Notes: generated from the letters alone by a model not told the origin. DNA of 64,000 nucleotides from an uncultured Actinomycetes bacterium (GCA_963713185.1 CAVQKV010000007.1:18537-82536); one strand, 5' to 3'. Numbered from the stretch's first letter, positions 19,260 through 54,528 are shown. Numbers and translations are program-made.

Positions 19260-19350
19260 CTCGATCGCGAGCGTAGCACCGCAGGGTGTCACGTTTCCCC
19301 CGTGGGACCGCTGCCGAGATCGAGACCGGCGGGTTCTCGAACGGCTCCCG

Positions 19351-20949
19351 CTACTCGATGTAGCCGAGACCGCGGAGGTGCTCCTCCATCTCGTCGGCCT
19401 CGGTGTCGCTGACCGCCGTGGCCTCGTCGCCGCTCGGCATGCCGGGGATCTGCACCGCCGGCTCGGCCTCGGCCTGCGCGACCTTCGCGTCCGAACCCAC
19501 GACCTCGTGCAGCACCCGGCCGGTGTGCTCGATCGAGGCGGGCGCGTCGAGCGCCGCCAGGATCGTCGGCGCCATGTCGATCAGCAGCGGCGGCTGCTCG
19601 AACGGCTTCACGGACGGCCCGGCCGCCACGATCACGCCCTCGATGCCGGTGGTCGCCGCTGATCCAGTCGGCGTCCTCGATCGCGGACTTCGCGTGGGTG
19701 AGCGAGTACCGCTCGGCCGGCTCCATCAGGATGTCGGGCGCGGTGTCGGCGTGCTTGCCCTTGAAGATCTCCTCGCGCCGGTAGATCGCCTTCACGGGCT
19801 TGCGGCCGGTCTTCGGGTCGACGAAGCTCGACGAGCGCGTCCATCACCTGGTCGCGCACCTTCTCGAAGTCGGCCGGGTCGACGATGCCGTCGGGCTCGC
19901 GCCCGGCCAGGTTGATCGAGACGCCCTCACCGGTCGAGCGGATCGTCGTGAACGCCTTGGTCTTGGACCAGTTCACCGACTGCGGCAGCGAGACCTTCCC
20001 GTGCAGGCCGAGCATGTCGTAGACCTTGCGCGCGACCTTGCGCACCGGCCCCCACTGCATCGGCCCGAAGACCACGTTCGACGCGCTGAACTCGAGGAAG
20101 CCGAACTCTTCAGCAGGTGGTCCATGTGGATCGTGCGCGTGACCGACTGGAACCCGTGGTCGCGAGATGAACAGGACCAGGTCGTCGGGCTCGCGTGCGC
20201 GAGACGAACGAGCCGATCGCGTCGTCGAGCTGCGCGTAGATGTCTGCGCACCTTCCCGCCGATCGCGGTCTCGTGGTTCTTCGCGTAGTCGGGGTGGTCG
20301 GGCGCGACGTAGTTCGACAGCGCGTGCTGCGTGCGGTCGACCGAGACCCAGACCGAGGCCATCAGGTCCCAGTCGGAGTTGTCCATCAGCCACTCGGTCG
20401 CGCGGATCCGCTTGCCGGTGACCTCGAGCGCCTCGTCCAGGTACTGCGTCGGGCCGGTTGCGGTAGGTCGTCCAGGACATGCCGTTGATCGCCCACGGCA
20501 CGCCGGCCTTCTCGAGCTGCTCGGCCAGGTCGGCGGGCTGCGTGTACGGTGCGCCCCTTCGGCAGCACGCCGCCGGCGAGCGATCTTCCCGTTGATCTCC
20601 GGCGGCGGGAACATGCAGCGGCACGTCGGCGTAGCACCCCGACCTTGCCGGCCGCCGAGAGGTCCTCGACGAACGTCCGCTCCTTGATCGACTTGTAGGT
20701 GACCGGGTACTGCTTGTGGGTGCCCGGCACGGTCTCGAGGATGTCGTAGACCCCGTGATCGGCCGGGTCGACCCCCGTCAGGAACGACGGCCACGCCGCC
20801 CACGAGTGGGTCGGCACCGTCGAGCGCAGGACGCCCTTCTGCCCCCGGTCGATCAGGGCCTGCAGGTTCGGCAGGGCGCCCCGCTCGAGCAGGGGTTCGA
20901 GGATGCGCCAGTCGGCGCCATCCCATCCGATGAGCAGCACTCGTGGCAT
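19351..20949 (-). pseudogene. nucleotide pyrophosphatase/phosphodiesterase (alkaline phosphatase superfamily) gene with ~11 frame breaks
   Basis: The N-terminus MPRVLLIGWDGADW...STVPTHSWAAWPSFLTG (metal-site Thr) is family-typical. Conserved segments then hop among all three frames (ORFs 20386..20949, 19973..20965, 19632..20624, 19289..19795, 19351..19635), down to ...RGLGYIE. Confidence 0.75.
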
Positions 20950-21212
20950 TAGGCGTCAGCTCCATTCAGCGGTTGCTTAGAGTCTACAAATCGGGTGCTC
21001 GCGTCTTGCACGTGGTTTATGGGTACTTCGGCACAACACTTTATCCTCGGCTCAGATCAAGCCAGACATCAAGAACACGCTCCGACAAGCAAGCCTCAAC
21101 TGGCAGATCGCTCGACCAACTATTCATTCCGCCGGGGACTAGAGACAACCCTTGGACGGGTCATTTTCTCTCAGGGATGGGAGGCGATGCGCTCCTGCTC
21201 AGCCGTGGAGCG

Positions 21213-24200: not shown

Positions 24201-24710
24201 ATGCCGCCCCATCTCGAGCTCGGCCGCGATCCGATGCTCGGTCGCCCCGAGTCGGAGCTCTTCCATCCGTGCGATGGATCCGCGAAGCGAGGGTTCGTCG
24301 GCGAGGTCGGCGAACGCCGGTCCGCGCCACAGATCCAGAGCCTCCGCAAGGGTCGCCGCCGCGCCCGAAGGATCGGACCCCGACGATGCCTTGCCCCGCC
24401 TCACGAGCGACTCGAAACGCGAAGCATCGATCTCCTCGGGCGCAACGGAGAGCACGTATCCGCCCCCGCGCCCCTCGATCCTCCCGTCGCCGAGCACCTT
24501 GCGCAGCCGGGATACGTACGACTGCAGCGTGTTCCGTGCCGAATCGGGTGGGTCCTGGCCCCAGAGATCATCGATCAGCCGTTCGGCCGGCACGATCCGG
24601 TTGGCCTGAAGGATCAGGTGCGCCAAGACGGCGCGCTGCTTCGGCCCGCCGATCGGAAGCGGACGGCCATCATCTAGGACCTCCATGGGCCCGAGCACCC
24701 GGAACTCCAC
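21213..24710 (-). CDS. SARP (OmpR-type wHTH + BTAD) - Ser/Thr protein kinase - TM - Cys-containing extracellular domain - PD40/TolB-like beta-propeller fusion protein
   Basis: GTG 24710 gives VEFRVLGPMEV (SARP N-terminus). BTAD ~23985-24420. Kinase ~23106-23906 (GRGGMSVV, VALK, HRDVKPGN, DFG, APE). TM 22980-23045. At least five WSPDG/WTPDG blades at 21216-22043. Confidence 0.85.
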   Translation of the reverse strand: MEFRVLGPMEVLDDGRPLPIGGPKQRAVLAHLILQANRIVPAERLIDDLWGQDPPDSARNTLQSYVSRLRKVLGDGRIEGRGGGYVLSVAPEEIDASRFESLVRRGKASSGSDPSGAAATLAEALDLWRGPAFADLADEPSLRGSIARMEELRLGATEHRIAAELEMGRHSTMVSELEALTSRYPLRERLWAHLMLAMYRSGRQAEALDAFQRARQVLQDELGADPSAELLDLNQRILRRDPDLLGDETSAPPPSGRPSRGDLALGTSFAGYRIEAVLGRGGMSVVYLAEHLALGRKVALKLLAPQLADDDRFRERFVRESRIAAGMEHPNIVPIYEAGEAEDSLFIAMRYVPGTDLGTLIRREGTLDPERALWIVRETASALDAAHARGLVHRDVKPGNILVVPEEGSEGRDLVYLSDFGLTKRLEGGTGGLTRTGQFVGTVDYVAPEQIEGKRVDARADVYALACVLFECLTGKVPYERETQVAALYAHLGEKPPRLTASRPDLPAAIDEVVATALSKSPDGRYVSCGRFTTAARDALGPPAGSAGRASSGSLRWRAVAGALAAALVTGVIVFSVSRDGTPTGQRGEDPLSPSPAPHFQTVERALTSDDERLLGYIPENLGAACLPLDRAVSADGPLSALVCTEDEVEVLYELFSSRDEMDEAFQIRANVNRAPDGECATDHLAVTPYSIGGEPAGRVLCYTQVIGDTETSHIQWTDENSAIYAHAIRNDQADLTLYEWWLSSSGPVASAEDATVTAKDRPAAATVPLLRDGSYLVSAAEPDRVTGVNLRDANGRPLVTYRMHIEDGTYELARDAAVIESGNVLLAKPDLVVFDPLTGDCVGTGLTGGPASYRVSGSAKSLNWEFKSGGTCAGPNEVSERLAWTPAPSGVIAFATEGQIALMDAAGFDVEQLTDESRSSASPGWSPDGTRIVFTGHGPDGSDLYALHADGTGLVRLTDVVGDVIDPAWSPDGSHVALALEEPDLPDSVRSSIVVMDADGSGWTELVTSESEGFGWPAWSPDGRRIAFTGINGDHFNLYVMGAGGSDVTKVGEEPAGHFGFPLSWTPDGERILFWGHKLGGGRTILSMRPDGSDVREFMEDFPRSPSIGQLVLDWSPDGRWIVMAGASASDSSGTLALLMRADASEVFTIGAYVTEPTWRPVSD

Positions 24711-24956
24711 GCCGCGACCGTACGCCGACGCCGTGGAGAGCGAAAGCGACCCTATCCCGCTGAGGGACTCGTTCCATGCTTTCGGGAGGCCATCACGATG
24801 TCCTTCGTCACACCAGGCGATCGATCTGATCGGCAGACGAGGGGTCGCCCCCTGTTGTAGTGGGCCCGCGCGAGCCACCACCACCTCCGCATCTCGAACG
24901 CTCGAGCGGCTCGACCGCTGAGCGCGCCGTTCGAGAGGACGTGGCACCATGCCGCC
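24711..24956. promoter_or_regulatory. divergent intergenic region between the SARP-kinase gene and the HisKA_3 kinase gene
   Basis: 246 bp between two divergent start codons. Promoters are inferred from position only, and no motif was identified. Confidence 0.3.
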
Positions 24957-27101
24957 ATGTCAAGCTCGAACGAAGATCGCGCCGCGGCCGCGAGCTCGCC
25001 TCGCCTGCGGCTGCTCGCCCGCGTCATCTTCGGTCTGACGATCCTGGGTATCGCGTCCGGCGTCTGGTTCTCGTTCCTCGATGCCGGGAAGTTCGAACTC
25101 GACCTCGCCTTTCTGCTCAGCTTCTGCCTGTTCCCGATCATCGGCTACATCTTGGCGATCCGCCGGCCGGACAACGCGATCAGCTGGTTGATGCTGGGGA
25201 TCGGCGCTGCCTTCGGCCTGAGCGCGTTGGAGGGGTCCTACGCGAGCTACGCGATCCACGGCGGCGTCGGCGGGTATCGCCTGGGGGCGATCGCCCTCGC
25301 GTTCGACCAGCCGATGTGGTTGCCGATCGTCGGTCTGCCGGCGACGTTCCTGATCCTGCTCTTCCCCGATGGGCACCTGCCGTCGCCACGCTGGCGGTGG
25401 TTCGCCTGGGTCCTGGGCGCCAGCATGGTGATCGTCTTCCTGGCGATCCTGTTCAGCCCGGGGCGGTTCGAGGACAGCGCGTTCCCGAACGTGGTGAACC
25501 CGCTCAGCTCGGAGGCTGTGCGGTCGGTAGTGGCGGTCGCCACCGTCTCGCTCGTCATCCTCCCGATCGGCGTGATCGGCTCGCTGGTGAGCCTCGTGCA
25601 GCGGTTCCGCCGGTCCACGGGGATCGAGCGGCTGCAGCTGCGGTGGCTCGTGACCGCCGCAGGTACGGTCGCCATCCTCTACGCCTCCGCCCTCGTCCTC
25701 TCGTTCAACGCAACCTGGGGGACCGACGCCACGCCCGGCTGGTTGGGGGTCCTCCAGGCACTCGCCATCGTGTCCTTCGGCCTGATCCCGATCGCGATCG
25801 GGATCTCCGTGCTCCGGTACCACCTCTTCGACATCGACCTCGTGATCAACCGGGCGCTGCTGCTCGCAGCAATGGTGGTCTTCATCACCCTCGTGTACAT
25901 GGGGATCGTCGTCGGCGTCGGGGCACTCGTCGGGAGTCAGGCGAACGCCGTCCTGTCCGCGGTGGCCGCCGCGGTCGTCGCGCTGGCGTTCCAACCTGCG
26001 CGGAGACGTGCTCAGCGGTTCGCCGACCGCCTCGTCTACGGGAAGCGAGCGACGCCCTACGAAGTGCTCTCGCAGTTCTCCGATCGGCTCGGCAACGCGT
26101 ACGCGAACGAGGAGCTGCTGCCGAGGATGGCCCGGGCGCTGGCCGAGGGCACCGGTGCGTCCCGCGCCGACGTGTGGGTCCGCGTCGGCGACGAGCTCCG
26201 AGGGGAGGCCGTGTGGCCGCAGGACGCCGATCGGCCCGACCCCCTCGTCGCCTCAGCGAACACCGAAGGGAGCCTCTCCTCGTCGTCGATGCGCGAGCCC
26301 GTCCGCCACTTGGATGAGCTCCTCGGAGCGCTGTCGATAACGAAGAAGCCGGGAGAGTCGATCACCGCGACCGAGGAGAAGCTCGTCCGCGATCTGGCCT
26401 CCCAGGCGGGTCTGGTGATGCGCAACGTCGCGCTCGCGGAGCAACTGATGGACACCATCGAGGAGCTCCGCGCGTCGCGCCAGCGCTTGGTGACCGCGCA
26501 GGACGAGCGCGCCAAGCAGCTCGAGCGGAACCTGCACGACGGCGCGCAGCAGCAGATCGTCGCGCTCACGGTGAAGCTGCGACTGCTCGGCCAGCTGATG
26601 GATCGTGACGTGGAGAAGGCCAAGTCGATGGCGTCGGATCTCCAGGCCGATGCGACGGACGCGTTGGAGCAGCTCCGAGACCTGGCTCGCGGCATCTACC
26701 CGCCGTTGCTGGCGGACCAGGGCCTCGTCGCGGCACTCGAGGCACAGGCGCGCAAGGCAACCGTCCCGACGGAGGTTCGATCCGACGGGATCGGCCGCTA
26801 CCCGCAGGACATCGAGGCCGCCGTCTACTTCTGCGTCCTCGAGGCCCTGAACAACGTGGCCAAGTACGCCGAGGCGACGAGGGCAGAGGTGAGCCTGGCG
26901 CAGATCGATGGCCATCTCCGTTTCGCCGTCGTCGACGACGGGACGGGTTTCGACACGGCTGAGACGAGTTACGGAACGGGGGTCCAGGGGATGGCCGACC
27001 GCTTGGACGCGATCGGCGGTGCCCTCGAGGTGGTCTCCCGCAAAGGCGAAGGCACGACCATCGAAGGCCAGATCCCGACGCCCGCGAACCCCGACGCCTG
27101 A
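24957..27101 (+). CDS. multi-TM sensor histidine kinase, HisKA_3 (NarL/LuxR-partner) type, no adjacent response regulator
   Basis: About 8-10 N-terminal TM helices and a GAF-like middle region. H-box ERNLHDGAQQ, N-box EALNNVAKYA and G-boxes DDGTGF / GVQGMADR. Confidence 0.9.
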   Translation: MSSSNEDRAAAASSPRLRLLARVIFGLTILGIASGVWFSFLDAGKFELDLAFLLSFCLFPIIGYILAIRRPDNAISWLMLGIGAAFGLSALEGSYASYAIHGGVGGYRLGAIALAFDQPMWLPIVGLPATFLILLFPDGHLPSPRWRWFAWVLGASMVIVFLAILFSPGRFEDSAFPNVVNPLSSEAVRSVVAVATVSLVILPIGVIGSLVSLVQRFRRSTGIERLQLRWLVTAAGTVAILYASALVLSFNATWGTDATPGWLGVLQALAIVSFGLIPIAIGISVLRYHLFDIDLVINRALLLAAMVVFITLVYMGIVVGVGALVGSQANAVLSAVAAAVVALAFQPARRRAQRFADRLVYGKRATPYEVLSQFSDRLGNAYANEELLPRMARALAEGTGASRADVWVRVGDELRGEAVWPQDADRPDPLVASANTEGSLSSSSMREPVRHLDELLGALSITKKPGESITATEEKLVRDLASQAGLVMRNVALAEQLMDTIEELRASRQRLVTAQDERAKQLERNLHDGAQQQIVALTVKLRLLGQLMDRDVEKAKSMASDLQADATDALEQLRDLARGIYPPLLADQGLVAALEAQARKATVPTEVRSDGIGRYPQDIEAAVYFCVLEALNNVAKYAEATRAEVSLAQIDGHLRFAVVDDGTGFDTAETSYGTGVQGMADRLDAIGGALEVVSRKGEGTTIEGQIPTPANPDA

Positions 27102-27138
27102 GAGAGACTGGGGGAACGACGAGTCGGGAGGTCGAGCG

Positions 27139-27910
27139 ATGGAGACGGTCACATCCAAGGACGGCACGGAGCTCGCGTTCGATCGGCTCGGCCAGGGACC
27201 GCCGGTGGTGCTGGTGTGCGGCGGTTCGGTCGACCGCATGGCCGACGCGGCCATCGCGCAGGAACTCTCGTCCGACTTCACGGTCCTCAACTACGACCGC
27301 CGTGGGCGCGGAGACAGCGGGGACACGCCTCCGTACGCGATCGAGCGAGAGGTCGAGGACATCGAGGCGGTGATCGGCGCGGCCGGCGGATCGGCCAACC
27401 TGTGGGGATCCTCGTCGGGTGCGGTGCTCGCGATGATCGCCACGGCGAGCGGGGCCCCGGTCACCAAGCTGGCGCTCTGGGAACCGCCGTTCATCCTCGA
27501 CGAGAACGCCCGCCCCCGCCGACCAGGTCGAGCAGTACGAGCGGATGATCGCGGAAGGCCGTCGCGGCGACGCGGCCGAGTACTTCATGTCGAAGGTCGT
27601 GGGGATGCCCCCGGAGTTCGTCGCCGACGCGCGGACGCAGCCCTGGTGGGCGGAGCAGGAGGCGATCGCCCACACGCTCGCGTACGACGCCCGCATCATG
27701 GGCGACTACTCGATCCCGACCCAGACCGCGGCGTCGGTCAAGCCCCCGACGCTCGTGCTCGCCGGCGGGGCCGACATGCCGTTCATGCGCGAGTCGGCAC
27801 AAGCCCTGGCGGATGCGATCCCCGACGGGCAGGTCCGGTTCCTCGACGGTCAGGGGCACAACGTCGACCCCGCGGTCCTCGTGCCGGCGTTGAAGGAGTT
27901 CTTCTCCTAG
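27139..27910 (+). CDS. alpha/beta hydrolase, one frame break at a C5 run (~27513-27517)
   Basis: METVTSKDGTELAFDRLGQGPPVVLVCGG...GSSSGA (nucleophile elbow) lies in frame 1. After cgcccccgcc the homologous sequence continues in ORF 27545..27910 (…FLDGQGHNV). Confidence 0.75.
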
Positions 27911-38317: not shown

Positions 38318-40282
38318 ATGGGAGGCACCGAGACGCCGGCAGCGACCCTCGACGAGGCCAGGGCGGCCTGCGACCGGCGGGCGTGGGAACGTGCGCACGA
38401 GCTCTTCGCGGCCGTGGCCGCCGAGCGCCCGCTCGAGGCAGAGGATCTCGAGCGGTTCGCGAAGGCCGCCTACTGGATCGGAGCCGCGAGCGGGGCGATC
38501 TCGGTCCGGGAGGCGGCGTACGAGGCCTTCCTCGCGCGCGGCGACAACGTGCAAGCCGCGTCCTGCGCGCTCACCCTGCAACGCCAGCACGCCTCGATGC
38601 TCCAGGACTCGATCGCGGCGGCGTGGTTGAAGCGGGCCGAGTGGCTGCTGGTCAGCGCCGAGGAGTCCACGGCCCACGGATACCTGGCCATCGCCCATGC
38701 CGATGCGGCGCGGGCACGTGGGGACGTCGCCGAGGCGACGAACCTGGCCGTGCGAGCCGTGGAGATCGCGAGCCGGTTCGACGACCGCGACCTTCCGACG
38801 TGGGCCCTCATGCGGCGGGGCATGTTCCTCGTGGACGCGGGCCGGGTGGACGAGGGGTGGCCGCTGATGGAGGAGGTCGCCTCGGCCGCGGCCGGCGGCG
38901 AGCTCGGCACGTTCACCACGGGGGCCGTCCTGACCAACGTCGTGAACATGTGCCGCGACCTCGGCGACTTCCGTCGCGGCAGCGAATGGTCCGACGCCGC
39001 GATCCGCTGGTCCGAACGGCAGCAGATCACGGGCTTCCCGGGGATCTGTCGGGTCAACGGGGCGGCGATCCTGCGCATGCTCGGCAGGCTGCGGGAGGCG
39101 GAGGAGGAGGCGCGCGCTGCCTGGCAGGAGCTGATGGAGTTCAGCCCGGCCCACGCCGCGGCGGCGCAGCACGAGCTGGGCGAGGTGCAGCTCCGGCTCG
39201 GAGACCTGACCGCGGCCGACGAGGCCTTCCGACAGGCGCGCGACCTGGGAGAGGATCCACAGCCGGGGCTCGCGCTGCTCCGACTCGCGCAGGGCGATCT
39301 CGATGTGGCTGCGTCTTCGATCCGCCGGAGCCTGCAGGTGGCCGCGTTCGACCGCTTCGCCCGTGCCCGGATGCTGCCGGCGCAGGCCGAGATCGCCGGT
39401 GCGGCGGGCGACGCGCAGACGGCCCGGGCCGCCCGGGACGAGCTGGCGGAGATCGCTCAGCAGGTCGCCTCTCCGGCCATCCGCGCGGCGAACGAGTGGA
39501 CGGCCGGCCTGACCGCGCTCCTCGAGGACGAGCCCGAACGCGCTTCGGGTCACCTCGGCGAAGCCCGGAAGCGATGGGACGAGGTCGGAGCCCCGTACGA
39601 GTCGGCGAAGGTGTCGCTCGCGCTCGCCGACGCGCAGCTCGCCGCCGGCCACGAGGAGGCCGCCGCGACCGAGCTCGATGCGGCGCGGACCGCGTTCGAA
39701 CGGCTGGGGGCGCACCTCGACGCGAGGCGAGCGGCGGAGCTGCTCGCGCGGACCCGGAGCGGCGGCGCGTCGTCCCGCACGGTTCGAACGTTCCTGTTCA
39801 CGGACATCGTCGGCTCGACCGCGCTGATCGAGGTGATCGGGGACGAGGCCTGGAACGACCTCCGCCGTTGGCACAACGAGACGCTCCGCTCGACGTTCGC
39901 CGATCACGGCGGCGAGGAGATCGATCACGCGGGCGACGGCTTCTTCGTCGCCTTCCCCGATCCCGCGCGTGCCGTCGCCTGCGCGGCGGAGATCCAGCGA
40001 CGGCTCGCCGAGCATCGACGGATCCACGGGTTCGCACCCCAGGTGCGGATGGGTCTCCACGCCACGACGGCGACACGGGACGAGACCGGCTACACGGGCC
40101 TCGGCGTGCACACGGCGTCCCGGATCGGCTCGCTCGCGGGGGCGGGTGAGATCCTCGCGAGCGCCGAGACCCTGGCCGCCGTCCCCGACGCGCGGGGTTC
40201 GGAGCGGCGGAGCGTCTCATTGAAAGGGATCGTCGAGCCCGTCGAGGTGGTCTCGATCGACTGGCCCTCGGCGAAGGACTGA
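38318..40282 (+). CDS. TPR-like sensor domain protein with C-terminal class III cyclase domain
   Basis: A ~480-aa helical-repeat N-terminus paralogous to the LuxR regulator at 43374..45003. C-terminal cyclase domain (FLFTDIVGST...HAGDGFFVAF...GVHTASRI). Confidence 0.85.
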   Translation: MGGTETPAATLDEARAACDRRAWERAHELFAAVAAERPLEAEDLERFAKAAYWIGAASGAISVREAAYEAFLARGDNVQAASCALTLQRQHASMLQDSIAAAWLKRAEWLLVSAEESTAHGYLAIAHADAARARGDVAEATNLAVRAVEIASRFDDRDLPTWALMRRGMFLVDAGRVDEGWPLMEEVASAAAGGELGTFTTGAVLTNVVNMCRDLGDFRRGSEWSDAAIRWSERQQITGFPGICRVNGAAILRMLGRLREAEEEARAAWQELMEFSPAHAAAAQHELGEVQLRLGDLTAADEAFRQARDLGEDPQPGLALLRLAQGDLDVAASSIRRSLQVAAFDRFARARMLPAQAEIAGAAGDAQTARAARDELAEIAQQVASPAIRAANEWTAGLTALLEDEPERASGHLGEARKRWDEVGAPYESAKVSLALADAQLAAGHEEAAATELDAARTAFERLGAHLDARRAAELLARTRSGGASSRTVRTFLFTDIVGSTALIEVIGDEAWNDLRRWHNETLRSTFADHGGEEIDHAGDGFFVAFPDPARAVACAAEIQRRLAEHRRIHGFAPQVRMGLHATTATRDETGYTGLGVHTASRIGSLAGAGEILASAETLAAVPDARGSERRSVSLKGIVEPVEVVSIDWPSAKD

Positions 40283-40388: not shown

Positions 40389-42023
40389 GTGGCGCAGGAG
40401 GGTCCCGACGGCGTGACGGAACGCACGAGCGGAGCGGCCGACGGTCGGCGGCCGGACCGCCGGGTGCGCGACCCGGAGCGGCTTCCGCCGTTCGTGAGGC
40501 CCGCGGCCGACTTCATCGCCAAGATCCGCGCGACCGTGCACACGAAGCTCCTCGCCGGCTTCCTCGTGATCGCCGTGCTCCTCGTCGCGATGGGGGTCAC
40601 GAGCATCCTCGTCATCCGGGAGATGAACCAGGAGGCGCATCAGCTCATCACGTTGCAGGAGCAGACCGACGTCGCCCGGCAGGCGATCTACTCCGTCACC
40701 TCGCAGAGCCATTTCCGGGCGATGGCGCTGATCACGGAGGAGGACGTCTGGAACGACAAGATCGTCACGGCGAAGGAGGCGTTCGTCGACGAACTGGACA
40801 CGTTGGCCGCGATGGGCGGACCGGACGTTGACGAGGCGGTCGACGGGATGCGAGCGATCGACGAGCGCTACGCTGCCGCCGGCGCCGAGGTCCTGGCCCT
40901 GTACACGGCGGGCGACATCGGAGGCGCGCTCGACCTGCACATCACCGCCGAGCACACGATCTCCCACGAGCTCGAGGACGAGCTCAATCAGCTGATCGAC
41001 TCCACGGAGGAGCGGATCGCCGTGGCGTCAGGCGATCTGTCGTCGCTGCACCGCTTCCTGCTGATCGCCGTCGGGATCTTCTCGGGCGTGAGCCTGCTGA
41101 TCGCGCTGGGTCTCGGCGCGGCCCTGTCCTGGTCGGTCATCCGTCCGGTCCGCAAGATGGACCTCGCGCTGGCCCGGATCGCCGACGGCGATTTCGGACA
41201 GCAGATCGACGTCCCCAACCGGGACGAGTTCGGCCGGCTGACGACGAACCTCAACCGGACCAGCGGACAGCTCGCGACGCTCTACCACGACCTCGAGGAG
41301 CTGAACCAGAACCTCGAGAAGACCGTGGAGGAACAGCTCGGCCAGCTCCGACGGGCGGAACAGCTCCGCCGCTACCTCGCACCGCAGGTCGCCGACGCCG
41401 TGCTCAATAGCGGGGCGCCGGTATCGCTCAGCTCGACGCGCCGGAACCTGAGCATCCTGGTGGCCAACATCCGCGGGTTCACCTCCATGTCCGAGGGCAT
41501 GGAGCCCGAGGAGGTGATCGACGGGCTCAACCAGCACTTCGCGGTCATGACCGACGTCGTCTTCCGCCACGGCGGAACGCTCGACAAGTACATCGGCGAC
41601 GGGATCCTCGCCTTCTTCGGAGATCCCATCCCGTTCGAAGATCACGCCGAACGGGCCGTCGTGACGGCGCTCGAGATGCGGCAGCGCCTCCGCGGCCTCC
41701 GCACGAGGTGGTCGCTCGAGCGCGAGGGTGGACTGAACGTGGGGATCGGGGTCAGCACCGGATACGTGACGGTCGGCAACATCGGTTCGGACACGCGGAC
41801 CGAGTACACGGTGATCGGTAACCACGTCAAGCTGGCGTCGTACCTGGCGCAGACCGCCGCACCGGATCAGATCCTGGTGTCGGAGCGCACGCTGACCGAC
41901 TCCGCGATCCGGGAGCGCGTCGATGCCACCGCCCTGGATCCGCTCGACGTGGAGGGCTTCCGCCATCCGGTCAAGGTCTTCGAGGTCGACGACGTGCCCG
42001 CGCCGCTCCGTCGGCGACTCTGA
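40389..42023 (+). CDS. membrane receptor with helical sensor, HAMP and a degenerate class III cyclase homology domain
   Basis: Two TM segments flank a ~190-aa extracytoplasmic helical domain. HAMP (VIRPVRKMDLALARIADGDF). The cyclase domain reads VANIRGFT, KYIGDG and GNHVKLASYL. Confidence 0.85.
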   Translation: MAQEGPDGVTERTSGAADGRRPDRRVRDPERLPPFVRPAADFIAKIRATVHTKLLAGFLVIAVLLVAMGVTSILVIREMNQEAHQLITLQEQTDVARQAIYSVTSQSHFRAMALITEEDVWNDKIVTAKEAFVDELDTLAAMGGPDVDEAVDGMRAIDERYAAAGAEVLALYTAGDIGGALDLHITAEHTISHELEDELNQLIDSTEERIAVASGDLSSLHRFLLIAVGIFSGVSLLIALGLGAALSWSVIRPVRKMDLALARIADGDFGQQIDVPNRDEFGRLTTNLNRTSGQLATLYHDLEELNQNLEKTVEEQLGQLRRAEQLRRYLAPQVADAVLNSGAPVSLSSTRRNLSILVANIRGFTSMSEGMEPEEVIDGLNQHFAVMTDVVFRHGGTLDKYIGDGILAFFGDPIPFEDHAERAVVTALEMRQRLRGLRTRWSLEREGGLNVGIGVSTGYVTVGNIGSDTRTEYTVIGNHVKLASYLAQTAAPDQILVSERTLTDSAIRERVDATALDPLDVEGFRHPVKVFEVDDVPAPLRRRL

Positions 42024-43373: not shown

Positions 43374-45003
43374 TCAGGCCAGGTCGTGCTCGTAGGCGAA
43401 CGCGGTGGCCGCCGAGCGAGACGTGACGCCGAGCTTCACGAACATGTTCTGGAGGTGGCGGGCGACGGTGTGCTCGCTGATCACGAGCTCGACGGCGATG
43501 TCCCGGTTCGTCTTGCCGGAGGCGACGAGCCGCAGCACCTCGGCCTCGCGAGCCGTCAGGCCGCGCGGCAGGGCCTTCGGCCCACCGAGCAGATCGGAGG
43601 CCTCGGCGGCGTCTCCGGCGGCGCCCAGGCGTTCGAACGTGGCCAGGGCAGCCCGGAGCTCGAGCGCGGCGTCGTCCTCATCCCCGGCCGCACGTAGCGC
43701 GAGCCCGAACGCCATCCGGGCCCGAGCCCCCTCGTACGGCAGGCGCAGCTCCTGCCACAGTCCGGTCGCTCGGCGCAGGCTCGTCAGGGCCGCGGCGACG
43801 TCGCCCTCGGCGAGCAGGAGCGACCCGCGGACGGTCGCCGCGGACGCCGCCAGCACCGGGGCGTTCGAGGCGCCGGCGATCGCGTCGAGCTCGTCCGCGG
43901 CAGTCCTGGCGGCCCCCACGTCGCCGGCCGCGAGCGCGGCGTCCGCGAACGCCCACAGCAGCCTGGTCCGATGGAGCCGATTGCCCGACGTTCCGGTGAT
44001 CGCGACACGCAGCGCCGCGACCGCGGCCTCCACCTTCCCCTGCGCGAGGCGCAGCAGGGCCAGCCCCGGCTGCGGCTCGAACCCGAGCTCGTGCGCCCGC
44101 TCGAACGCCGCCTCGGCGCCGGCCAGATCACCGAGGCGCCGACGCACGTCACCGGTCTCGTACAGCGCCTCACCAGCCAGCCCCGAGTTGAAGCTCAGCA
44201 GCTCCTCCGTGGCCCGGACGGACTCGGCCTCGGCCTGGGACCAGTCCCCTCGGAGGTTCGCGAGCTGGGCCCGATTGACCCGGCACATGCCCGGATACGG
44301 CGACTCGGGAGGGATCGATTCCGCCCACGCACGCGCTGCCTCGCCCCAGTCACCGGCCCGCCGGACGTCGGCGATCTCCAGACAGGCCCCTATCACGTTG
44401 CAGTAGATCGCGCCGGTGAAGTAGTCGTTCAGTTCACCGGCGACCACGGAGGTCATCGCCTCATCGAGCAGGGCCACACCCTCGGCGACGCGGCCCTGAT
44501 CCAGCAGGGTGAGACCCTGCGTGTGGATCGCCATCCCCAGGAGGTCGCGGTCGCCGAAGCGCTGGGCGATCTCGACGGCGCGTTCGGTCAGCGGCACCGC
44601 CGTGTCCGGGTCCCCGCTGAACCGCAGGACCGTCGCCTCGAGGAGCGCGGCGAAACCGAGCTCGACGCAATCGGGCAGGTCCTTCGCGTGTCTCTGGGTA
44701 CGCGCGAACCATCCGGCGCCGACCGCCGGCTCCTCCCGGAGGAAGTGCTCGATGCACAGCCGCGCCGACATCCACGCGGCGCGACGGTCTTCGCCCGCCT
44801 CCACGTAGCCGGTGTACGCCCGTTGGCGGGCCGCGAGCGACTCATCGATCCGGCCGGTCCACCAGGCGGCGTCGGCGAACCGCTCGGCGATCCTCGGGAC
44901 GTTCGAGCGGCTCGAGCGCGCGGAACAGCTCGTACGCCTCGGACCACGATCCCTGATCCACCGCGGCCCGCGCCCGGTCGATGTCCACGATGCGCTCGGC
45001 CAC
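43374..45003 (-). CDS. LuxR-family transcriptional regulator with TPR-like sensor domain, one frame break near 44890
   Basis: C-terminal LuxR HTH (LTAREAEVLRLVASGKTNRDIAVELVISEHTVARHLQNMFVKLGV). N-terminal homology continues upstream of ORF 43374..44804 in another frame, back to GTG 45003 (VAERIVDIDRARAAVDQGSWSEAYELF), preceded by GGAGGAGG. Confidence 0.8.
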
Positions 45004-46465: not shown

Positions 46466-47538
46466 GTGCAGCGTCGAAGCGGTCACGTCCTCGTCGTCGA
46501 TGACGACGCGTTGAACCGACGGCTCGTCACCGCGACGCTCGCCCGAGAGGGCTCCGGACGAGCTCGGCCACCAACGGGGCCGAGGCCCTGAAGGCGATCG
46601 GCGAGGACCCGCCCGACGTGATCCTGCTCGACATCGAGATGCCGGGGATGGACGGGATCGAGGTGCTCGAGCACATCAAGTCGGATGAGAAGCTCCGGCA
46701 CCTGCCCGTGGTCATGATCTCGGGCGTGGACGACACGGAGAGCGTCGTGCGGTGCCTCGAGACCGGCGCCGACGATTTCCTTCCCAAACCGTTCGACGCG
46801 GCGATCCTGCGCGCCCGCATCAACGCCGGGCTCGACCGCAAGGCTCTCCACGAGCTCGAACGCGATCGCGTCCGCGACATCTTCACCCGCTTCCTGCCGG
46901 AGTCCATGGTGGATGAGGTGCTCGCGCGGACCGACGGCGATGCGCGGATCCGGCCGGAGCTGCTGACCGGCACGGTCCTGTTCGGTGACCTGCGCGGGTT
47001 CACGAGCTTCGCGGAAGGCCGTCCGGTGGACGAGGTCGTCGAGGCGATCAACACCTACCTCACGCTGATGACCGATGCGGTCCTCGACCACGGCGGCACG
47101 CTGGTCGACTACATGGGCGACGGCATCATGGCCGCGTTCGGCGCCCCGGTCGCGAACGACGACCACGCGGATCTCGCGATCGCGGCCGCGCGCGCGATGG
47201 CGGGCGAGCAGCTCGCGACGTTCAACGCGTGGCTCTCAGCCACCGGTGTCGAGCAGCCGCTGCGGATGGGGATCGGGATCAACTCGGGGCCGGTGCTGTC
47301 CGGGAGCGTCGGGTCGCCGCGACGCCTGGACTACGCCGTGATCGGCGACACGACCAACACCGCGTCGCGGATCGAGGCGATGACGAAGGACCTCGACCAC
47401 GCGGTGCTGTTCTCGGAACAGACCAGGGACGCGCTGCGCGAGCTGCCGGAGGACGCGGTCTCGCTGGGCGAGTTCGAGATCCGCGGCCGGAGCGCCGCGA
47501 TCAAGCTCTGGGCCCTCGACGTCGAGGAACCCGCATGA
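46466..47538 (+). CDS. response regulator receiver fused to class III adenylate/guanylate cyclase, one frame break near 46553
   Basis: GTG 46466 follows AGGAGGAG. The REC N-terminus HVLVVDDDALNRRLVTATLAREG is in one frame and NGAEALKAIGEDPPDVILLDIEMPGMDG...KPF is in ORF 46618..47538. Cyclase motifs FGDLRGFT, YMGDGIMAAFGAP and GDTTNTASRIE. Confidence 0.85.
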
Positions 47539-50500
47539 CCGCCCTCGACGACGAGATCCGAACCCTCAAGGCGCGCGTCGCCGAGCTCGAGGCCCACGAG
47601 GCCGGCCGCGAGCGCGCCGAGAAGGTCCAGGACGCCCTGTACCGCATCGCCGAGACGGCCAGCGTCGCCCAGGACATGCAGGACTTCTACCGGAAGATCC
47701 ACGCGATCGTCGGCGAGCTGATGTACGCCGACAACTTCTACATCGCGCTCTACGACGACGAGCGCGACATGATCAACTTCCCGTACAACATCGACGAGGA
47801 TCCCGACCAGCCGGATCCGGATCTCTGGGAACCCCTCGGCAGCGGCTACGCCGCCGGAACGACCGCCCACCTGCTGCGGACCGGCCGGCCGATGTTGCTC
47901 ACGGCCAAGGACTGGAGACGGCTGGCCGCGCGGGGCGAGATCGTGCTCGTCGGCGAGGAAGCCGTGTCTTGGCTCGGCGTCCCGCTCCAGACCGAGGGCA
48001 AGACCCTCGGCGCCCTCGTCGTCCAGAGCTATCGGGAAGACCGTCGGTACACCGATGCGGACAAGGAACTGCTCACCTTCGTCGGCCAACACATCGCCTC
48101 TGCACTCGAGCGTACGCGCCTGATCGACGAGACTCGCCAGCGCAACGCCGAGCTCGCCCTCATCAACGACGTCCAGCGCGGCCTGGCGATGAACCTCGAC
48201 ATGCAGGCGATGTACGACCTGGTCGGCGACCGGCTCCGGGAGATCTTCGACGCGCAGGTCGTGGACATCGCCGTTCTGGACGAGGGGGCCGGCCTCCTCC
48301 GCTTCCCCTACACCATCGAGAAGGGCGTCCGGTTCCACGACGAGCCGATGGCCGTCTTCGGGTTCCGCAAGCACGTCCTGGAGACCCGAGAGCCGCTGCT
48401 CATCGAGGCCATCACGCCGGAGCTTCTGGCCGAATACGAACAGCCCGCCGTCATCTCGGGGGAGCCCGCCAAGTCCTCGGTCTTCGTGCCGTTGGCCGTC
48501 GGAGGCAGGGCTACCGGGGTGATCTCCCTTCAAAACGTCGACCGGGAGCACGCGTTCGGCGACGCGGACGTGCGTCTCCTCACGACGCTCGCAGGCAGCC
48601 TGAGTGTCGCGCTCGAGAACGCCCGGCTGTTCGAGGAGACACGGCAACGCAACGCCGAGCTCGCTCTCATCAACGACGTCCAGCGCGGCCTCGCGCAGAA
48701 CCTCGAGATGCAGGCGATGTACGACCTCGTCGGCGACCGGCTCCGCGACATCTTCGACGCGCAGGTCGTGAGCGTGGCCGTGCTCGACGAGTCGGGAACC
48801 CTCGTGCGGTTCCCCTACATCATCGAGAAAGGCGAGCGCTTCTTCGTCGAGCCGCAGGAGCCTGTCGGGTTCCGCAGGCACGTCCTCGAGGCGCGCGAGC
48901 CGCTCCTGTTCGAGGCCATCACGCCGGAGCTCCTCGAGGAATGGGATCAGCCCAGCGTTCTCGTGGGCGAGCAGCCGAAATCGTCGGTCTGGGTACCTCT
49001 GGTCGTCGGGGGCAGAGCAACAGGTGTCATCTCGTTGCAGAACGTCGAGAAGGAGCGTGCGTTCAACGAGGCCGACCAGCGGCTGTTGATGACGCTCGCG
49101 GGAAGCCTGAGCGTCGCGCTGGAGAACGCACGACTCTTCGAGGAAACCAAGCAGCGCAACGCCGAGCTCGCGCTCATCAACGACGTCCAGCGCAGCCTGG
49201 CCGAGAACCTCGATATGCACGCGATGTACGAGCTCGTCGGGGACCGCCTCCAGGAGATCTTCGACGCCCAGGTCGTCGACATCGGCGTGCTCGACCGTGA
49301 CGCGGGCAAACTTCGGTTCCCGTACTCGATCGAGCGCGGCGTCCGCTACCCGGACGAAGTGGTCGACACCGGCGGTCTGGGTGGCTACGTCATGCAGACG
49401 CGGCAGCCGCTCCTGATCAACGAGCGGGTCACCGAGAAGACGCTGGAGCTGCTGGGCGAGGCACCGCTGCCCATGGGTTCGGGCGAACCCGCGATGTCGG
49501 TGCTGTTCGTCCCGCTCATCGTGGGCGGCGAGGCCACCGGCCGGATCTCGCTGCAGAACCTCGACCACGAGCACGCGTTCAGCGAGGCGGACGTTCGCCT
49601 GCTCACCACGATCGCGGGAAGCCTGAGCGTCGCGCTCGAGAACGCCCGGCTGTTCGAGGAGACCCGTCAGCGCAACGCGGAGCTCGCCGTGATCAACGAC
49701 GTGCAGCGGAGCCTGGCCGAGAACCTCGACATCCAGGCGATGTACGACCTCGTCGGCGACCGCATCCGAGACATCTTCGACGCCCAGGCCGTCGACATCG
49801 GCGTGCTCGAGCGCGAGACGGGACTGATCTGGTTCCCGTACTCGATCACGCGCGGCGTTCGCGACCCGAAGGAGACGCTCGAACCCAGCGGCCTGACCAC
49901 TTACGTCATGCAGACGCGCGAACCCCTCCTGATCAACGAGGGACTCGACGATCGGGTCGCCGCGATCGGCGGCCCGATGGGGGTGCGCGCGGGCGGATCG
50001 CCGAAGTCGTTGCTGTTCGTCCCCTTGCAGGTAGGCGGCGAAGCGACCGGCCGGATCTCGCTCCAGAACCTGGATCGCGAACACGCGTTCAGCGAGGCGG
50101 ACGTTCGCTTGCTGACGACGATCGCCGGCAGCCTGAGCGTCGCGCTCGAGAACGCCCGCCTTTTCGACGAGACCCGGCAGCGCAACGCCGAGCTCGCGCT
50201 CATCAACGACGTGCAGAGCGGGCTGGCCGAGAACCTCGAGATGCAGGCCATGTACGACCTGGTCGGCGACCGCATCCGCGACATCTTCGACGCGCAGGTC
50301 ATCGCGATCGGCATCGTGAATCGGGACACCGGTCTGCTCGACAACCCGTACATGTTCGAGAAGGGCGCCCGTTACACGACCGAGCCGATGTCCATCGAAG
50401 GCGGGCCGACCAAATTCGTCCTCGACACCGGGGAGACGCTCGTCATCAACGAGCGGTTCACGGAGCGCGCCAACGAGCTCGGACCCGCGCCGAACTGGGG

Positions 50501-53500
50501 CGAGGGGGGTGATCCACTGTCGGCCGTCTACGTCCCTCTTGTCGTGGGAGGTAGGGCGATCGGCCGAATCACCCTGCAGAACATGGACCGCGAGAACGCG
50601 TTCACCGACGCAGACGTCAGCCTCCTGACCACGCTCGCCGGGAGCCTGAGCGTCGCGCTCGACAACGCGCGCCTGTTCGAAGAGACTCAGGCAGCGCAAC
50701 GCCGAGCTCGCGCTCATCAACGACGTCCAGAGCGGCCTCGCCGAGAACCTCGAGATGCAGGCGATGTACGACCTCGTCGGCGAGCGGATCGGGCAGATCT
50801 TCGACGCGCAGACCGTCGACATCGGGGTCGTGGACGAGGCCGGCGCTCAGATCTGGTTCCCGTACTCGATCGAGCGCGGAGTCCGACTGATCGACCATCC
50901 GATCGAGATCATGGGGTTCCGCAAGATCGCCCTAGAGACGCGAGAACCGGTCGTCGTCAACGAAGACATGGAGCGGCGATGTATCGCGGCCGGCAACCCG
51001 CTCGCGATCGCCGGAGAACCCTCGCGGTCGTCCCTCTTCGTCCCCATGCTGATCGGGAATCGAGGGACGGGGGTCATCTCGCTCCACAACCTCGATCGCG
51101 AACACGCGTTCAGCGAGGCCGACGTCAGGCTGCTCATGACGCTCGCCGGCAGCCTGAGCGTTGGGCTCGAGAATGCCCGGTTGTTCGAGGAAACGGGCCA
51201 GCGTGCGGCCGAGCTCGCGATCATCAACAACGTCGGCCAGGCGCTGGCCGAACAGCTCGAGCTCGACGCGTTGATCGAGCGCCTCGGCGATCAGCTCCGT
51301 GAGGTGTTCAGCGCCGACCTCGTCTACGTCGCCTTGCACGACACGGCGACCGACATGATCGACTTCGCTTACTACAGCGAGAACGGGGAGCGCGGCGAGA
51401 ACCCGTCGATGCGCTTCGGGGAGGGGCTCACGTCGAGGATCCTGCAGACGCGGGTGCCGTTGCTCCTCAATCGACCGGAGGCTTTCCAGGAGCTCGGTAT
51501 CCCGGTGGTGGGGACCCCGGCCAAGTCGTACTTGGGGGTCCCCATCATCGCCGGCACGGCTGCCATCGGCGTGATCAGCGTGCAGCACATCGAGCAGGCC
51601 GGACGCTTCACCGAGGCGGACACGCGGCTCCTGTCCACGATCGCCGCGAACGTCGGCGTCGCGATCCAGAACGCCCGCCTCTACGCAGAAACCGGGCGTC
51701 GGGCGAGCGAGATGGCGGCGCTCGCGGAGCTGGGACGCGAGATCGGCGCGCTCCTGGACCTCGAGCCGATCCTGGGCGAGATCGGCGACCGCGCCCGCGA
51801 TCTCCTCGACGCCGACACGAGCGCGGTCTTCCTGGAGCGTGAGGGCCGTTTCGTGCCGGTCGTGGCCCTCGGTGAGTTCGGTGAGGCCCTGATGAGCGAC
51901 ACGATCACGCCCGGCGAGGGGATCGTCGGCGACCTCGCGCTCCGCGGGACGGCGGAGGTCGTCAACGATGTCCGCGGGGACCCGCGCGGGGTCCAGATCC
52001 CTGGGGCGGAGTACGAGGACCTCGAGCGCCTGATGGCGGCTCCGCTCGTGGCGCGCGGCCGGGTCATCGGGGTGATGGCGGTCTGGCGCACGACGCGTGC
52101 CGCGAACCCGTTCACCGGGGAAGACCTCGACTTCCTCGTCGGGCTCTCCCAACAGGCGGCGATCGCGATCGAGAACGCCCGTCTGTTCCAGATGTCGAAG
52201 GAGGCCGAAGAGGGCTACCGCAAGCAGAAGCAGTACTTCGAATCGCTCGTCGAGATCAGCCCGGTCGCGGTGGTGACCATGGATCGCGATCAGACGGTCT
52301 CCGGCTGGAACCCCGCCGCGGCGCGGCTCTTCGGCTACTCGCCGGACGAGGCGATCGGTCGGACGATCGACTCCCTGATCGTCCCCGAGGATCTCGCGCA
52401 GGAAGGTGACGACATCGTGCGGGAGGCGACCGAGCGAGGCCGGGCACACCGGATGTCGAGACGGCACCGGAGCGACGGCCACCTCGTCGAGGTCGAGATC
52501 GACATCGTGCCGCTCGTCGTCGACGGCGAGCACCAGGGCTACTACGCCATCTACCACGACGTCACCGAGCTCCAGGAGGCGCGCAGGACGGCCGACGAGG
52601 CGAACGAGTCCAAGAGCGCTTTCCTCGCGACGATGAGCCACGAGATCCGTACGCCGATGAACGCGATCATCGGGATGAGCGGCCTTCTCGCGGAGACCGA
52701 GCTCGACGCGGAGCAGCGCGAGTACGCCTCGACCATCGCCCGTAGCGGCGAGGCCCTGCTCACGATCATCAACGACATCCTCGACTTCTCGAAGATCGAG
52801 GCCGGGCGGATGGACCTCGAACTCGCGCCGTTCGACGTCCGCGAATGCGTGGAGGCGGTCGTGGACCTGATCGGACCGATCGCGCAACGCAAGGGGATCG
52901 AGGTCACCTACGGGATCGAGCCCGAGACGCCGGAGACCGCGGTCGGCGACACGAGCCGGCTCCGCCAGATCCTGCTCAACCTGCTGAACAACGCCGTGAA
53001 GTTCACCGATGGGGGCGAGATCGCGGTCCACGTCGAGGCGGCGGAGGGGCCGTCCCCCGATCGCATCGCGTTCCACGTGAGCATCCGCGACACCGGGATC
53101 GGGATCCCACCTGATCGGATCGATCAGCTCTTCCGGTCGTTCACGCAGGTCGACGCCTCGACGAGCCGCCGGTACGGAGGTACCGGGCTCGGTCTCGCGA
53201 TCAGCCGGCGGCTTGCCGAGCTGATGGGCGGCACGGTCACGGCGGAGAGCAGCGGCGTCCCTGGGGAAGGCAGCACGTTCCACGTGACGTTCGAGGCGGG
53301 GGTGACCGACATGACGCCGACCGCGCTCCGGCGGGACGGATCGTACGCGGGGCGCCAGGCATTGATCGTGGACGACAACGCGACGAACCTCCTGCTGATG
53401 ACCGCGCTCCTGTCGGCCTGGGGCGTCGAGACGACGAGCGCGTCCTCGGGCAACGAGGCACTCGGCGCGATCGACGGAGGCGGGTTCGACGTCGCGATCC

Positions 53501-54528
53501 TGGACATGCTGATGCCCGGGATGGACGGGCTCGAGCTCGCGACGCGGCTGCACGAGCGCGCGCCGGGGCTACCGACGATCCTCGCCTCGTCGGTCCCGCG
53601 GCACGACGTGTCGAGCGATCCCCGGTGGGAGGGGGCCGGGATCGGTGCGATCATCGTCAAGCCGATCAAGGCCTCGGCCCTCCACGGCGCCCTCGCGATC
53701 GTCCTGGAGATAGAGCCCGGCGGGGAGGCGGCGCGAGAGGAGACCGCGGGAAGCCTCGACCCCGAGCTCGCCTCGCGGCACCCGCTCCGGATCGTCCTCG
53801 CCGAGGACAACGTCGTGAACCAGCGGCTCGCGCTCCGGCTGCTCGAGAAGATGGGCTACCGGGCCGACGTCGCGGCCAACGGGCTCGAGGCCGTCGAGGC
53901 GGTGGAGCGGCAGCACTACGACCTCGTCCTGATGGACGTGCAGATGCCGGAGATGGACGGGGTCGAGGCGACCCGCCACATCCTCGAGCGGTGGCCGGAC
54001 GGCGAGCGTCCCTGGATCGTCGCGATGACGGCCGAGGTGATGCGGGGCGACCGCGAGGGGTTCCTCGCCGCCGGGATGAACGACTACGTCGCGAAACCGA
54101 TCCGCCCGCAGGAGCTCGTGGCGGCGATCACCCGCACGCCAAGCAGGGAGCAGCCGGCTGGCGCGAGCGACCCGACCGAGAGGGCACCGGCGGTGGACGC
54201 CTCGGTCCTCGCCAGGCTTGCCGAGAGCATGGGCGGCGATGACGCCTTCGTGGCCGAGCTGATCGAGCAGTTCGTGACCGACTCGCCGGGGCTGGTCGAG
54301 ACCGCTCGCCACGGGCTCGAGGCCGGCGACGCGGACGAGGTCCGTCGGGCGGCGCACACCCTCAAGTCCAACGCCGCGACGTTCGGGGCGAACGAGCTCG
54401 CCGACCGCAGCAGCCGGCTCGAGGCCGCCGCGAAGGCGGGATCGCTCGGAGTCGGTATCGAACAGGTCGAGGCCATCGACGAAGAGCTCGCTCGGGTGCA
54501 CGCCGCGCTCCGGTCGAGCATCGCATAG
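47535..54528 (+). CDS. soluble multi-GAF hybrid sensor histidine kinase (coiled coil - 9 GAF - PAS - HisKA - HATPase - REC - REC - HPt), one frame break at ~50689
   Basis: ATG 47535 overlaps the upstream TGA. ORFs 47229..51302 and 50755..54528 join across a 1-nt insertion. H-box SHEIRTP (His codon 52639-52641). REC Asp sites [11 protein letters not shown] and [11 protein letters not shown]. HPt [11 protein letters not shown]. No TM segment. Confidence 0.85.
48138..51705 (+). repeat. array of seven tandem ~507-516 bp GAF-module repeats inside the hybrid kinase gene
   Basis: The seam motif cag/caa-cgc-aac-gcc-gag-ctc (QRNAEL) recurs at 48138, 48645, 49152, 49668, 50178, 50692 and, diverged, at 51199. 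Near-identical 40-mers such as ctgagcgtcgcgctcgagaacgcccggctgttcgaggagac recur at unit ends. Confidence 0.85.

Follow-up and report, generated by a model that had tools for sequence, protein, structure and literature searches.

A stretch of DNA of 64,000 nucleotides from an uncultured Actinomycetes bacterium (GCA_963713185.1, CAVQKV010000007.1:18537-82536), which was analysed at its full length and is called the window here, carried a gene for a hybrid histidine kinase with a long tandem array of GAF domains (Table 1). As sequenced, the gene was split into two open reading frames (ORFs), 47229..51302 and 50755..54528, that lay in different frames, and the domain set of a hybrid histidine kinase was found in one polypeptide only once a single base at 50689 was removed. 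Translated in this way from the ATG at 47535, the protein had nine GAF domains followed by the PAS, HisKA, HATPase_c, two REC and HPt domains according to Pfam. The GAF domains were assigned with the profiles PF01590, PF13185 and PF13492; both GAF_2 (E 6e-125) and GAF (E 1.3e-109) matched nine stretches above the gathering threshold. The other domains were equally clear (HisKA, E 1.7e-22; HATPase_c, 8e-30; Response_reg, 1.7e-45 over two stretches; Hpt, 4.6e-15). Unlike the window kinase with its +1 break near 50689, the orthologs had a single uninterrupted reading frame, and two intact ones, P0003 (2,326 aa) and P0005 (2,323 aa), were 80% identical to it over 100% of the length. For comparisons between genomes we used the window (W), L001 (an Actinomycetota metagenome-assembled genome, MAG, from NCBI) and L002 (a Joint Genome Institute, JGI, contig), both relatives being intact and 80% identical.

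Directly upstream of the kinase was a gene for a REC domain fused to a class III nucleotide cyclase. Its stop codon overlapped the kinase start (ATGA), and the kinase is translationally coupled to the REC-cyclase gene. The same gene was found upstream of the kinase in L001, L002 and the contig of a 10-unit relative, P0004, and the 4-nt overlap was shared by the window, L001 and the P0004 contig.

Table 1. Features of the kinase locus in window coordinates
Feature	Position	Strand	Details
REC + class III nucleotide cyclase gene	46466..47538	+	357 aa in relatives; Pfam Response_reg and Guanylate_cyc there
Multi-GAF hybrid histidine kinase gene	47535..54528	+	2,330 aa after removing one base at ~50689
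Short coiled-coil leader before G0	47535-47609	+	
G0, diverged N-terminal GAF	47610..48137	+	~28% identical to G1-G6
G1 repeat unit, 169 aa	48138..48644	+	core 88% to L002 unit 1
G2 repeat unit, 169 aa	48645..49151	+	core nearest L001 unit 3, 74%
G3 repeat unit, 172 aa	49152..49667	+	core 85% to L001 unit 4, not unit 3
G4 repeat unit, 170 aa	49668..50177	+	core 79% to L001 unit 5
G5 repeat unit, 171 aa + extra base	50178..50691	+	
Frame break, one-base insertion at ~50689, G5/G6 seam	50688..50690	+	
G6 repeat unit, 169 aa	50692..51198	+	core 84-85% to unit 6 of L001 and L002
G7 diverged unit, 166 aa	51199..51696	+	stable ortholog, core 74%
G8 most diverged GAF, 165 aa	51697..52191	+	stable ortholog, core 91-97%
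PAS domain	52234..52575	+	Pfam PAS_4/PAS, aa 1567-1680
HisKA (H-box SHEIRTPMN) + HATPase_c	52612..53295	+	Pfam aa 1693-1757 and aa 1804-1920
Two REC domains	53356..54129	+	Pfam Response_reg, 2 stretches; tblastn positions
HPt phosphotransfer domain	54256..54504	+	Pfam Hpt, aa 2241-2323

The starts of the repeat units were marked by codon strings for QRNAEL at 48138, 48645, 49152, 49668, 50178 and 50692, with a diverged QRAAEL copy at 51199. The original prediction, made from the sequence alone, had named exactly these seven positions. A repeat search returned families with 6-8 copies between ~48.1 and 52.2 kb, and the start-to-start spacings were 507, 507, 516, 510, 514/513, 507/508, 498 and 504 nt. 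A periodic diagonal, which the prediction had expected in a self dot-plot, was present: the ~510-nt diagonal of the k-mer dot-plot of 47500-52300 contained 216 shared 10-mers, compared with a maximum of 9 in codon-shuffled controls (n=50), and harmonics at 1020, 1530, 2040 and 2550 (up to 5x). The array escaped Tandem Repeats Finder, whose maximal period of 500 nt was shorter than the ~510-nt unit. The predicted tandem of GAF modules was thus real, but its count of seven was too low, since Pfam found nine GAF domains in the gene, namely six close copies (G1-G6), the diverged G7, and G0 and G8. The mutual identity of G1-G6 over the whole unit was 56-78%, while identity to this group was ~42% for G7, ~28% for G0 and ~23% for G8. 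Within the window the greatest similarity was between the adjacent pairs G1/G2 (70%) and G3/G4 (59%), which is what tandem duplication would give, and an origin of the units by duplication of GAF modules had likewise been proposed correctly. An antisense ORF of 1,163 aa (window 47331-50822, minus strand) also ran across the array without codon-usage support; we did not consider it a gene because stop-free antisense frames are usual in coding DNA of 70% GC.

Conservation was distributed unevenly within the unit. In the unit alignment, the N-seam was taken as residue positions 1 to ~47 and the C-seam as the final ~37. Among G1-G6 the N-seam was 83% identical in amino acids and 87% in nucleotides, the C-seam 81% and 79%, and the core between them 47% and 59%. 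The unit alignment thus bore out the proposed contrast between conserved seams and divergent cores. However, the description of the seam DNA as nearly identical was overstated: the seams were well conserved, with 73-92% nucleotide identity, and the longest exact shared word, of 40 nt, occurred in only 2 of the 21 unit pairs, most pairs sharing words of 17-37 nt. The same distribution was found in a family profile of 1,021 canonical units, taken from 120 homologs of several phyla, where the seam helices a1 and a5 had an entropy of ~0.8 bits and helix a4 with its loop 2.6 bits. Four polar residues within the variable core (Y58, E61, R65 and S116) were at least 90% conserved family-wide, and may contact a ligand moiety common to the units.

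A structural basis for this pattern was suggested by an AlphaFold2 model of G3-G4 and the following N-seam, predicted as a monomer from a 25-sequence alignment (mean predicted local distance difference test score, pLDDT, 84.8). Each modelled seam was one continuous helix of ~45 residues (H145-189 and H315-360) followed by a short second helix, so that the seams were predicted to be inter-domain helices, as had been proposed. The variable core contained the beta-sheet together with helices a3 and a4 and a loop predicted with less confidence. A GAF fold has an antiparallel beta-sheet, one face of which packs against the N- and C-terminal helices and the other against small helices. The modelled elements followed this order, and Foldseek gave a probability of 1.0 to many GAF structures. 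Its best matches in the PDB were PDE5A (3lfv, E 7e-17, template modelling score, TM, 0.61), PDE2A (3ibj), PDE6 and CyaB2 (1ykd), with phytochrome GAF-PHY modules next, while by sequence no close solved structure was found (best E about 1e-4).

The length of the connector was also strongly constrained. The NARL-to-FDAQ distance was measured in 885 seams of 121 proteins (the 120 listed homologs and the window kinase): 798 seams had 45 residues and 34 had 52 (45+7); another 40 matches at 51 residues were GAF-to-HisKA junctions and not GAF-GAF seams. A step of one heptad is what a coiled-coil connector of fixed register would allow. Each seam merges the final helix of one GAF domain with the initial helix of its successor, as in the GAF-A/GAF-B tandems of cyclic-nucleotide phosphodiesterases and CyaB2. 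We propose that the protein would be a dimeric rod in which the seam helices form a coiled-coil spine, and that this spine would relay conformational signals from each GAF domain to the kinase.

The frame break was located in one of these connectors, at the G5/G6 seam, where the window read GAGACTCAGGCAGCGC and both closest orthologs read GAGACCC-GGCAGCGC (encoding ETRQR). The inserted base was immediately 5' of a 40-nt word that also occurs in G3, and it accounted for the 514-bp period, which is not a multiple of 3, a point overlooked in the original prediction. The break at 50689 was most probably a sequencing or consensus indel error, since four or more further window genes were frame-broken too. 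The REC-cyclase gene lacked one G of a GGGG run at ~46549-46552 relative to the L001 and L002 orthologs, and tblastn against these orthologs (92% identity) placed aa 1-29 in one frame and aa 29-357 in another. A TPR and GerE (LuxR-type) gene (43377-45000, minus strand) was broken at ~44893-44897 by an extra C near 44895 in comparison with its 542-aa ortholog in L001. Further split genes were flagged by a codon-usage frame track and partly confirmed by Pfam. The two halves of an alpha/beta-hydrolase gene (27112-27889, plus strand) lay in two frames, split near 27505-27552, the N-terminal half matching Abhydrolase_6 positions 1-93 and the C-terminal half Hydrolase_4 positions 152-233. A Phosphodiest-family gene (type I phosphodiesterase / nucleotide pyrophosphatase-like; 19288-20955, minus strand) was spread over about five frames, as judged from codon-usage frame calls and from how the translations read. 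Its first piece covered only the first 64 of the 342 positions of the Pfam profile, and four of the five fragments had no Pfam match on their own; such damage would fit a gene that is dead as well as one with many indel errors.

Another possible origin of the break was a real mutation, with the kinase gene and the cyclase gene coupled to it having recently become pseudogenes in this organism. The N-terminal product would then consist of 1,051 native residues and a 204-residue out-of-frame tail and would lack the kinase. In favor of this possibility, both genes of the operon and the neighboring TPR-GerE regulator contained single-base indels, and the insertion at 50689 was not in a homopolymer. 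On the other hand, the broken genes were otherwise ~80-92% identical in protein sequence to intact orthologs and had no in-frame stops or further decay beyond the single indels, the REC-cyclase break was an error in the length of a G run, and unrelated window genes were split as well, one of them over ~5 frames, which pointed to consensus errors. Moreover, the closest species representative, L020 (MAG MFD09267.bin.2.223), was similarly damaged: it is a Nanopore-only MAG (PMC12313526), and its kinase copy was fragmented by frameshifts into many short ORFs. Two window proteins had no exact match in public assemblies. Altogether, we considered recent pseudogenes an unlikely explanation. In the more probable case of an indel error, the practical lesson concerns annotation: one gene was split by a probable sequencing indel and there were several such breaks in the window, therefore ORF calls from this assembly need care.

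The origin of the seam conservation also had two possible explanations. The original prediction had attributed it to concerted evolution, that is, to gene conversion or unequal crossing-over within the same gene that kept the seams alike while the pockets diversified. Genome-specific homogenisation is the signature of such a process. It was not observed in W, L001 and L002, where repeats of the same genome were not more alike than those of different genomes: the nucleotide identity of the seams was 0.875 between within-genome paralogs, 0.870 between non-orthologs of different genomes and 0.884 between orthologs. The corresponding values for the cores were 0.614, 0.626 and 0.666. Synonymous identity of the seams was also similar for within-genome paralogs and between-genome non-orthologs (0.764 vs 0.755).

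Codon usage left a less uniform picture. At identical residues the same codon was used in 0.61 of cases in the C-seam, where 0.58 was expected from codon usage, and in 0.55 of cases in the core, where 0.59 was expected; the C-seam thus had no synonymous excess. In the N-seam, the value of 0.81 against an expectation of 0.66 was a point in favor of concerted evolution, and three other observations pointed the same way: exact words of up to 40 nt were shared between units, unit gain and loss showed that recombination occurs in the array, and the synonymous divergence (dS) of the N-seam between W6 and W1, W2 or W3 (0.17-0.18) was slightly below that of orthologs (0.22-0.28). However, these differences in dS rested on ~30 synonymous sites, and the codon excess of the N-seam was equally strong between genomes (about 0.76), so that it reflected site-specific constraint or composition rather than conversion within the gene. 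In addition, the seam profile held over 1,021 units from several phyla, which conversion within one gene cannot produce. We therefore left concerted evolution only a small probability, although conversion may have made a minor contribution to the likeness of the seams. The equal seam identity across the comparison classes, together with the same profile in the 1,021 units, argued for purifying selection on a connector with a critical register as what probably conserves the seams. As a separate observation, some codon choices at N-seam positions, in the first ~40 codons of each unit (48138-50810), were fixed over the six close units and nearly always the same in the two relatives; for example, QRNAEL was nearly always encoded by CAG CGC AAC GCC GAG CTC, though Arg, Ala and Leu codons varied elsewhere.

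The divergent cores of the original prediction corresponded to distinct types, each of which was conserved between genomes. With core types defined as clusters at >=65% identity, the arrays could be written as strings, ABCDEFGHI for the window, AJKCDEGHI for P0003, ABJKCLGHI for P0005 and ABCLEMDFHN for the 10-unit P0004. For cores of orthologous type the ratio of nonsynonymous to synonymous divergence (dN/dS) was 0.05-0.29, and therefore each type was kept by selection. The conservation of core types between genomes suggests that they may receive different inputs.

Position in the array was not conserved to the same degree. The G2, G3 and G4 cores corresponded to units 3, 4 and 5 of L001, respectively, and the G5 type was missing from L001 and L002 (best 46%) and present in P0004 (86%) and P0037 (90%). 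G0, G6, G7 and G8 were stable positional orthologs. Among the best 120 homologs the number of units was 6-20 and the protein lengths stepped by ~169 aa; the syntenic kinase gene of L020 (L020 11146-17257) was ~880 nt shorter, the equivalent of one GAF and the PAS domain. The syntenic stretch of L020 also covered the position of the REC-cyclase gene. The locus had been suspected to be prone to recombination, and both this range of unit numbers and the differences in core type by position between same-length relatives (80% identity) agreed with the suspicion. Whole units are gained and lost as the array evolves, probably by recombination inside the conserved seams, and the end units G0 and G6-G8 remain fixed.

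The original prediction had also warned that the copy number might be an assembly error. Two points spoke for such a collapse or expansion of repeats: the array was periodic, and the frame break was right at a seam, beside the longest shared word. However, the units were only 65-79% identical in DNA overall, with exact identity not exceeding 40 nt, and therefore should not collapse in assembly. Each unit had a distinct core with orthologs elsewhere, and the independent assemblies of the two relatives, L001 and L002, had the same nine-unit layout in single intact ORFs. An artefactual copy number or array was thus highly improbable, and the assembly concern applies to the one-base indel, not to the copy number. 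Finally, a programmed ribosomal frameshift or transcriptional slippage giving two products could be dismissed as extremely unlikely, since there was no slippery heptamer at the insertion and no homopolymer within 15 nt on either side, the orthologs were simply in frame here and lacked the +1 site (L001 and L002), and the ~550-nt overlap of the two long ORFs, its one point in favor, was to be expected in DNA of 70% GC.

Taken together, these data made it fairly probable that the array forms the sensory part of a single cytoplasmic hybrid histidine kinase with nine GAF domains, whose helical seams are under purifying selection. Several points weighed against this interpretation. The synonymous excess of the N-seam would be compatible with some gene conversion, be it ancient or sporadic, or with nucleotide-level selection. 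A longer ancestor from which different units were lost, or differential loss and duplication, could explain the differences in unit order without shuffling, and some of the compared proteins may be paralogs and not orthologs. The units lack the motif of GAF domains binding cyclic nucleotide monophosphates (cNMPs), and a different input for each core is a tentative proposal. Dimerisation and the passage of signals along the helices would follow from fold analogy with a model that was a monomer only. As for the break, the insertion at 50689 was outside any homopolymer, and an exact-seam scan of metagenome contigs with both versions of the break found no second contig of the strain to check it.

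The best structural matches to the two-unit model were the GAF-A/GAF-B tandems of the cNMP phosphodiesterases PDE2A, PDE5A and PDE6 and of the cyanobacterial adenylate cyclases CyaB1 and CyaB2. As in the window kinase, a long helix connects their GAF domains, which control a catalytic domain at the C-terminus, and a cyclase also belongs to the pathway context of the window locus. On the other hand, these proteins have two GAF domains, in contrast to nine in the window kinase and 6-20 in its family, the sequence identity was 15-20%, and the output in the window is a hybrid histidine kinase. The connector of the window kinase was highly conserved and ranked among the best-conserved regions of the protein, whereas known inter-GAF linkers have been described as poorly conserved (PMC1592074). 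We also searched for the NKFDE motif of cNMP-binding GAF domains as N[KR]-X(5-24)-F-X3-DE. It was absent from all nine units, with a partial N...F...D pattern in G1-G6, and an assignment by this motif was rejected. The hints that the units might nevertheless bind cNMPs were the fold similarity and the adjacent cyclase gene.

For a combinatorial array of sensors the obvious analogy was the cyanobacteriochromes, which contain arrays of 3-7 GAF domains, each tuned to a different color, with one output; they were the only multi-GAF array type (including arrays of 5-7 GAF domains) found in the searchable literature. However, there was no Cys in G0-G5, G7 and G8, and the single Cys of G6 lay where the core is variable and had no counterpart in the other units. 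The lack of Cys in eight of the nine units ruled out a chromophore site of the cyanobacteriochrome type, and a cyanobacteriochrome or phytochrome reading was rejected for want of a conserved bilin-attachment Cys. The window family also differed in its hosts, which were Actinomycetota and other non-phototrophs, in its strict ~169-aa period and in its near-invariant connectors.

The seam also resembled the S-helix, which likewise is a helix of ~40-45 residues with heptad periodicity between two signaling domains and has a conserved central polar cluster (EETRQRN in the seam). S-helices form a parallel coiled coil of about five heptads; for the seam, the monomer model predicted a continuous helix of 45 residues, and the length variants differed by exactly one heptad. 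The S-helix is defined by an 'ERT' signature in the central heptad and has been separated from inter-GAF linkers (Anantharaman, Balaji and Aravind 2006; PMC1592074). This signature was absent from the seam, which reads ETRQRN, and S-helix membership was rejected. By sequence, the closest solved structures were marginal matches to the GAF domains of DevS/DosS-DosT and sigma-54 activators (3k2n, 2vzw and 2y8h; E about 1e-4). DevS is, like the window kinase, a tandem-GAF histidine kinase from Actinomycetota. However, it has two GAF domains, binds haem through a His that was not identifiable in the window units, and is not a hybrid kinase.

The window gene is thus an ordinary member of a multi-GAF hybrid kinase family that is populous and uncharacterised. 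Its matches at E <1e-30 numbered more than 4,000 database proteins, from Actinomycetota, Chloroflexota, Betaproteobacteria and other groups, and no characterisation of the family was found in the searchable literature. With its strict 169-residue period, near-invariant connectors that change by whole heptads and core types that are swapped between close relatives, the family would suit the study of how one helical spine integrates the signals of many sensors and of how arrays of domains grow.

Considering the genes at the locus, we propose that the GAF inputs would act on the kinase and that its REC-HPt relay would act on the REC-cyclase and thereby on cNMP synthesis. By domain logic a phosphorelay to the REC-cyclase was the likely output. 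The cyclase partner was absent from distant multi-GAF loci, and therefore the proposal was not extended to the function of the whole family. A more speculative extension, which we considered tentative and on balance rather unlikely, was that the family represents a cassette-type sensor, with a universal connector, swappable GAF inputs, in this clade a REC-cyclase output, possible cNMP feedback and residues binding a common moiety. If so, the near-invariant, heptad-phased helix would be both a mechanical coupler and a recombination handle, and GAF "input cards" could be inserted, deleted and re-ordered between lineages with signal transmission unbroken, each lineage combining its own 6-20 inputs on one kinase. 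Some of the GAF domains might then sense the cNMP product of the REC-cyclase, closing a feedback loop, and Y58, E61, R65 and S116 would bind the common ligand moiety.

The neighborhood of the kinase had several other features. In L002, a shorter GAF hybrid kinase of 1,008 aa (L002 1722-4748), absent from the window and L001, was located between the REC-cyclase and the nine-GAF kinase and overlapped both by 4 nt. Three class III cyclase genes were found within 10 kb on the plus strand of the window, encoding a TPR/MalT-like protein with a C-terminal cyclase-like region (38318-40282), a HAMP-cyclase (40389-42023) and the REC-cyclase (46466-47538), and this cyclase-rich neighborhood was syntenic with L001 and L020. 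Farther upstream, a 1,248-aa ORF on the minus strand (21216-24959) appeared, as read from its translation alone, to combine a BTAD-type activator N-terminus with a Ser/Thr kinase and a C-terminal TolB-like beta-propeller.

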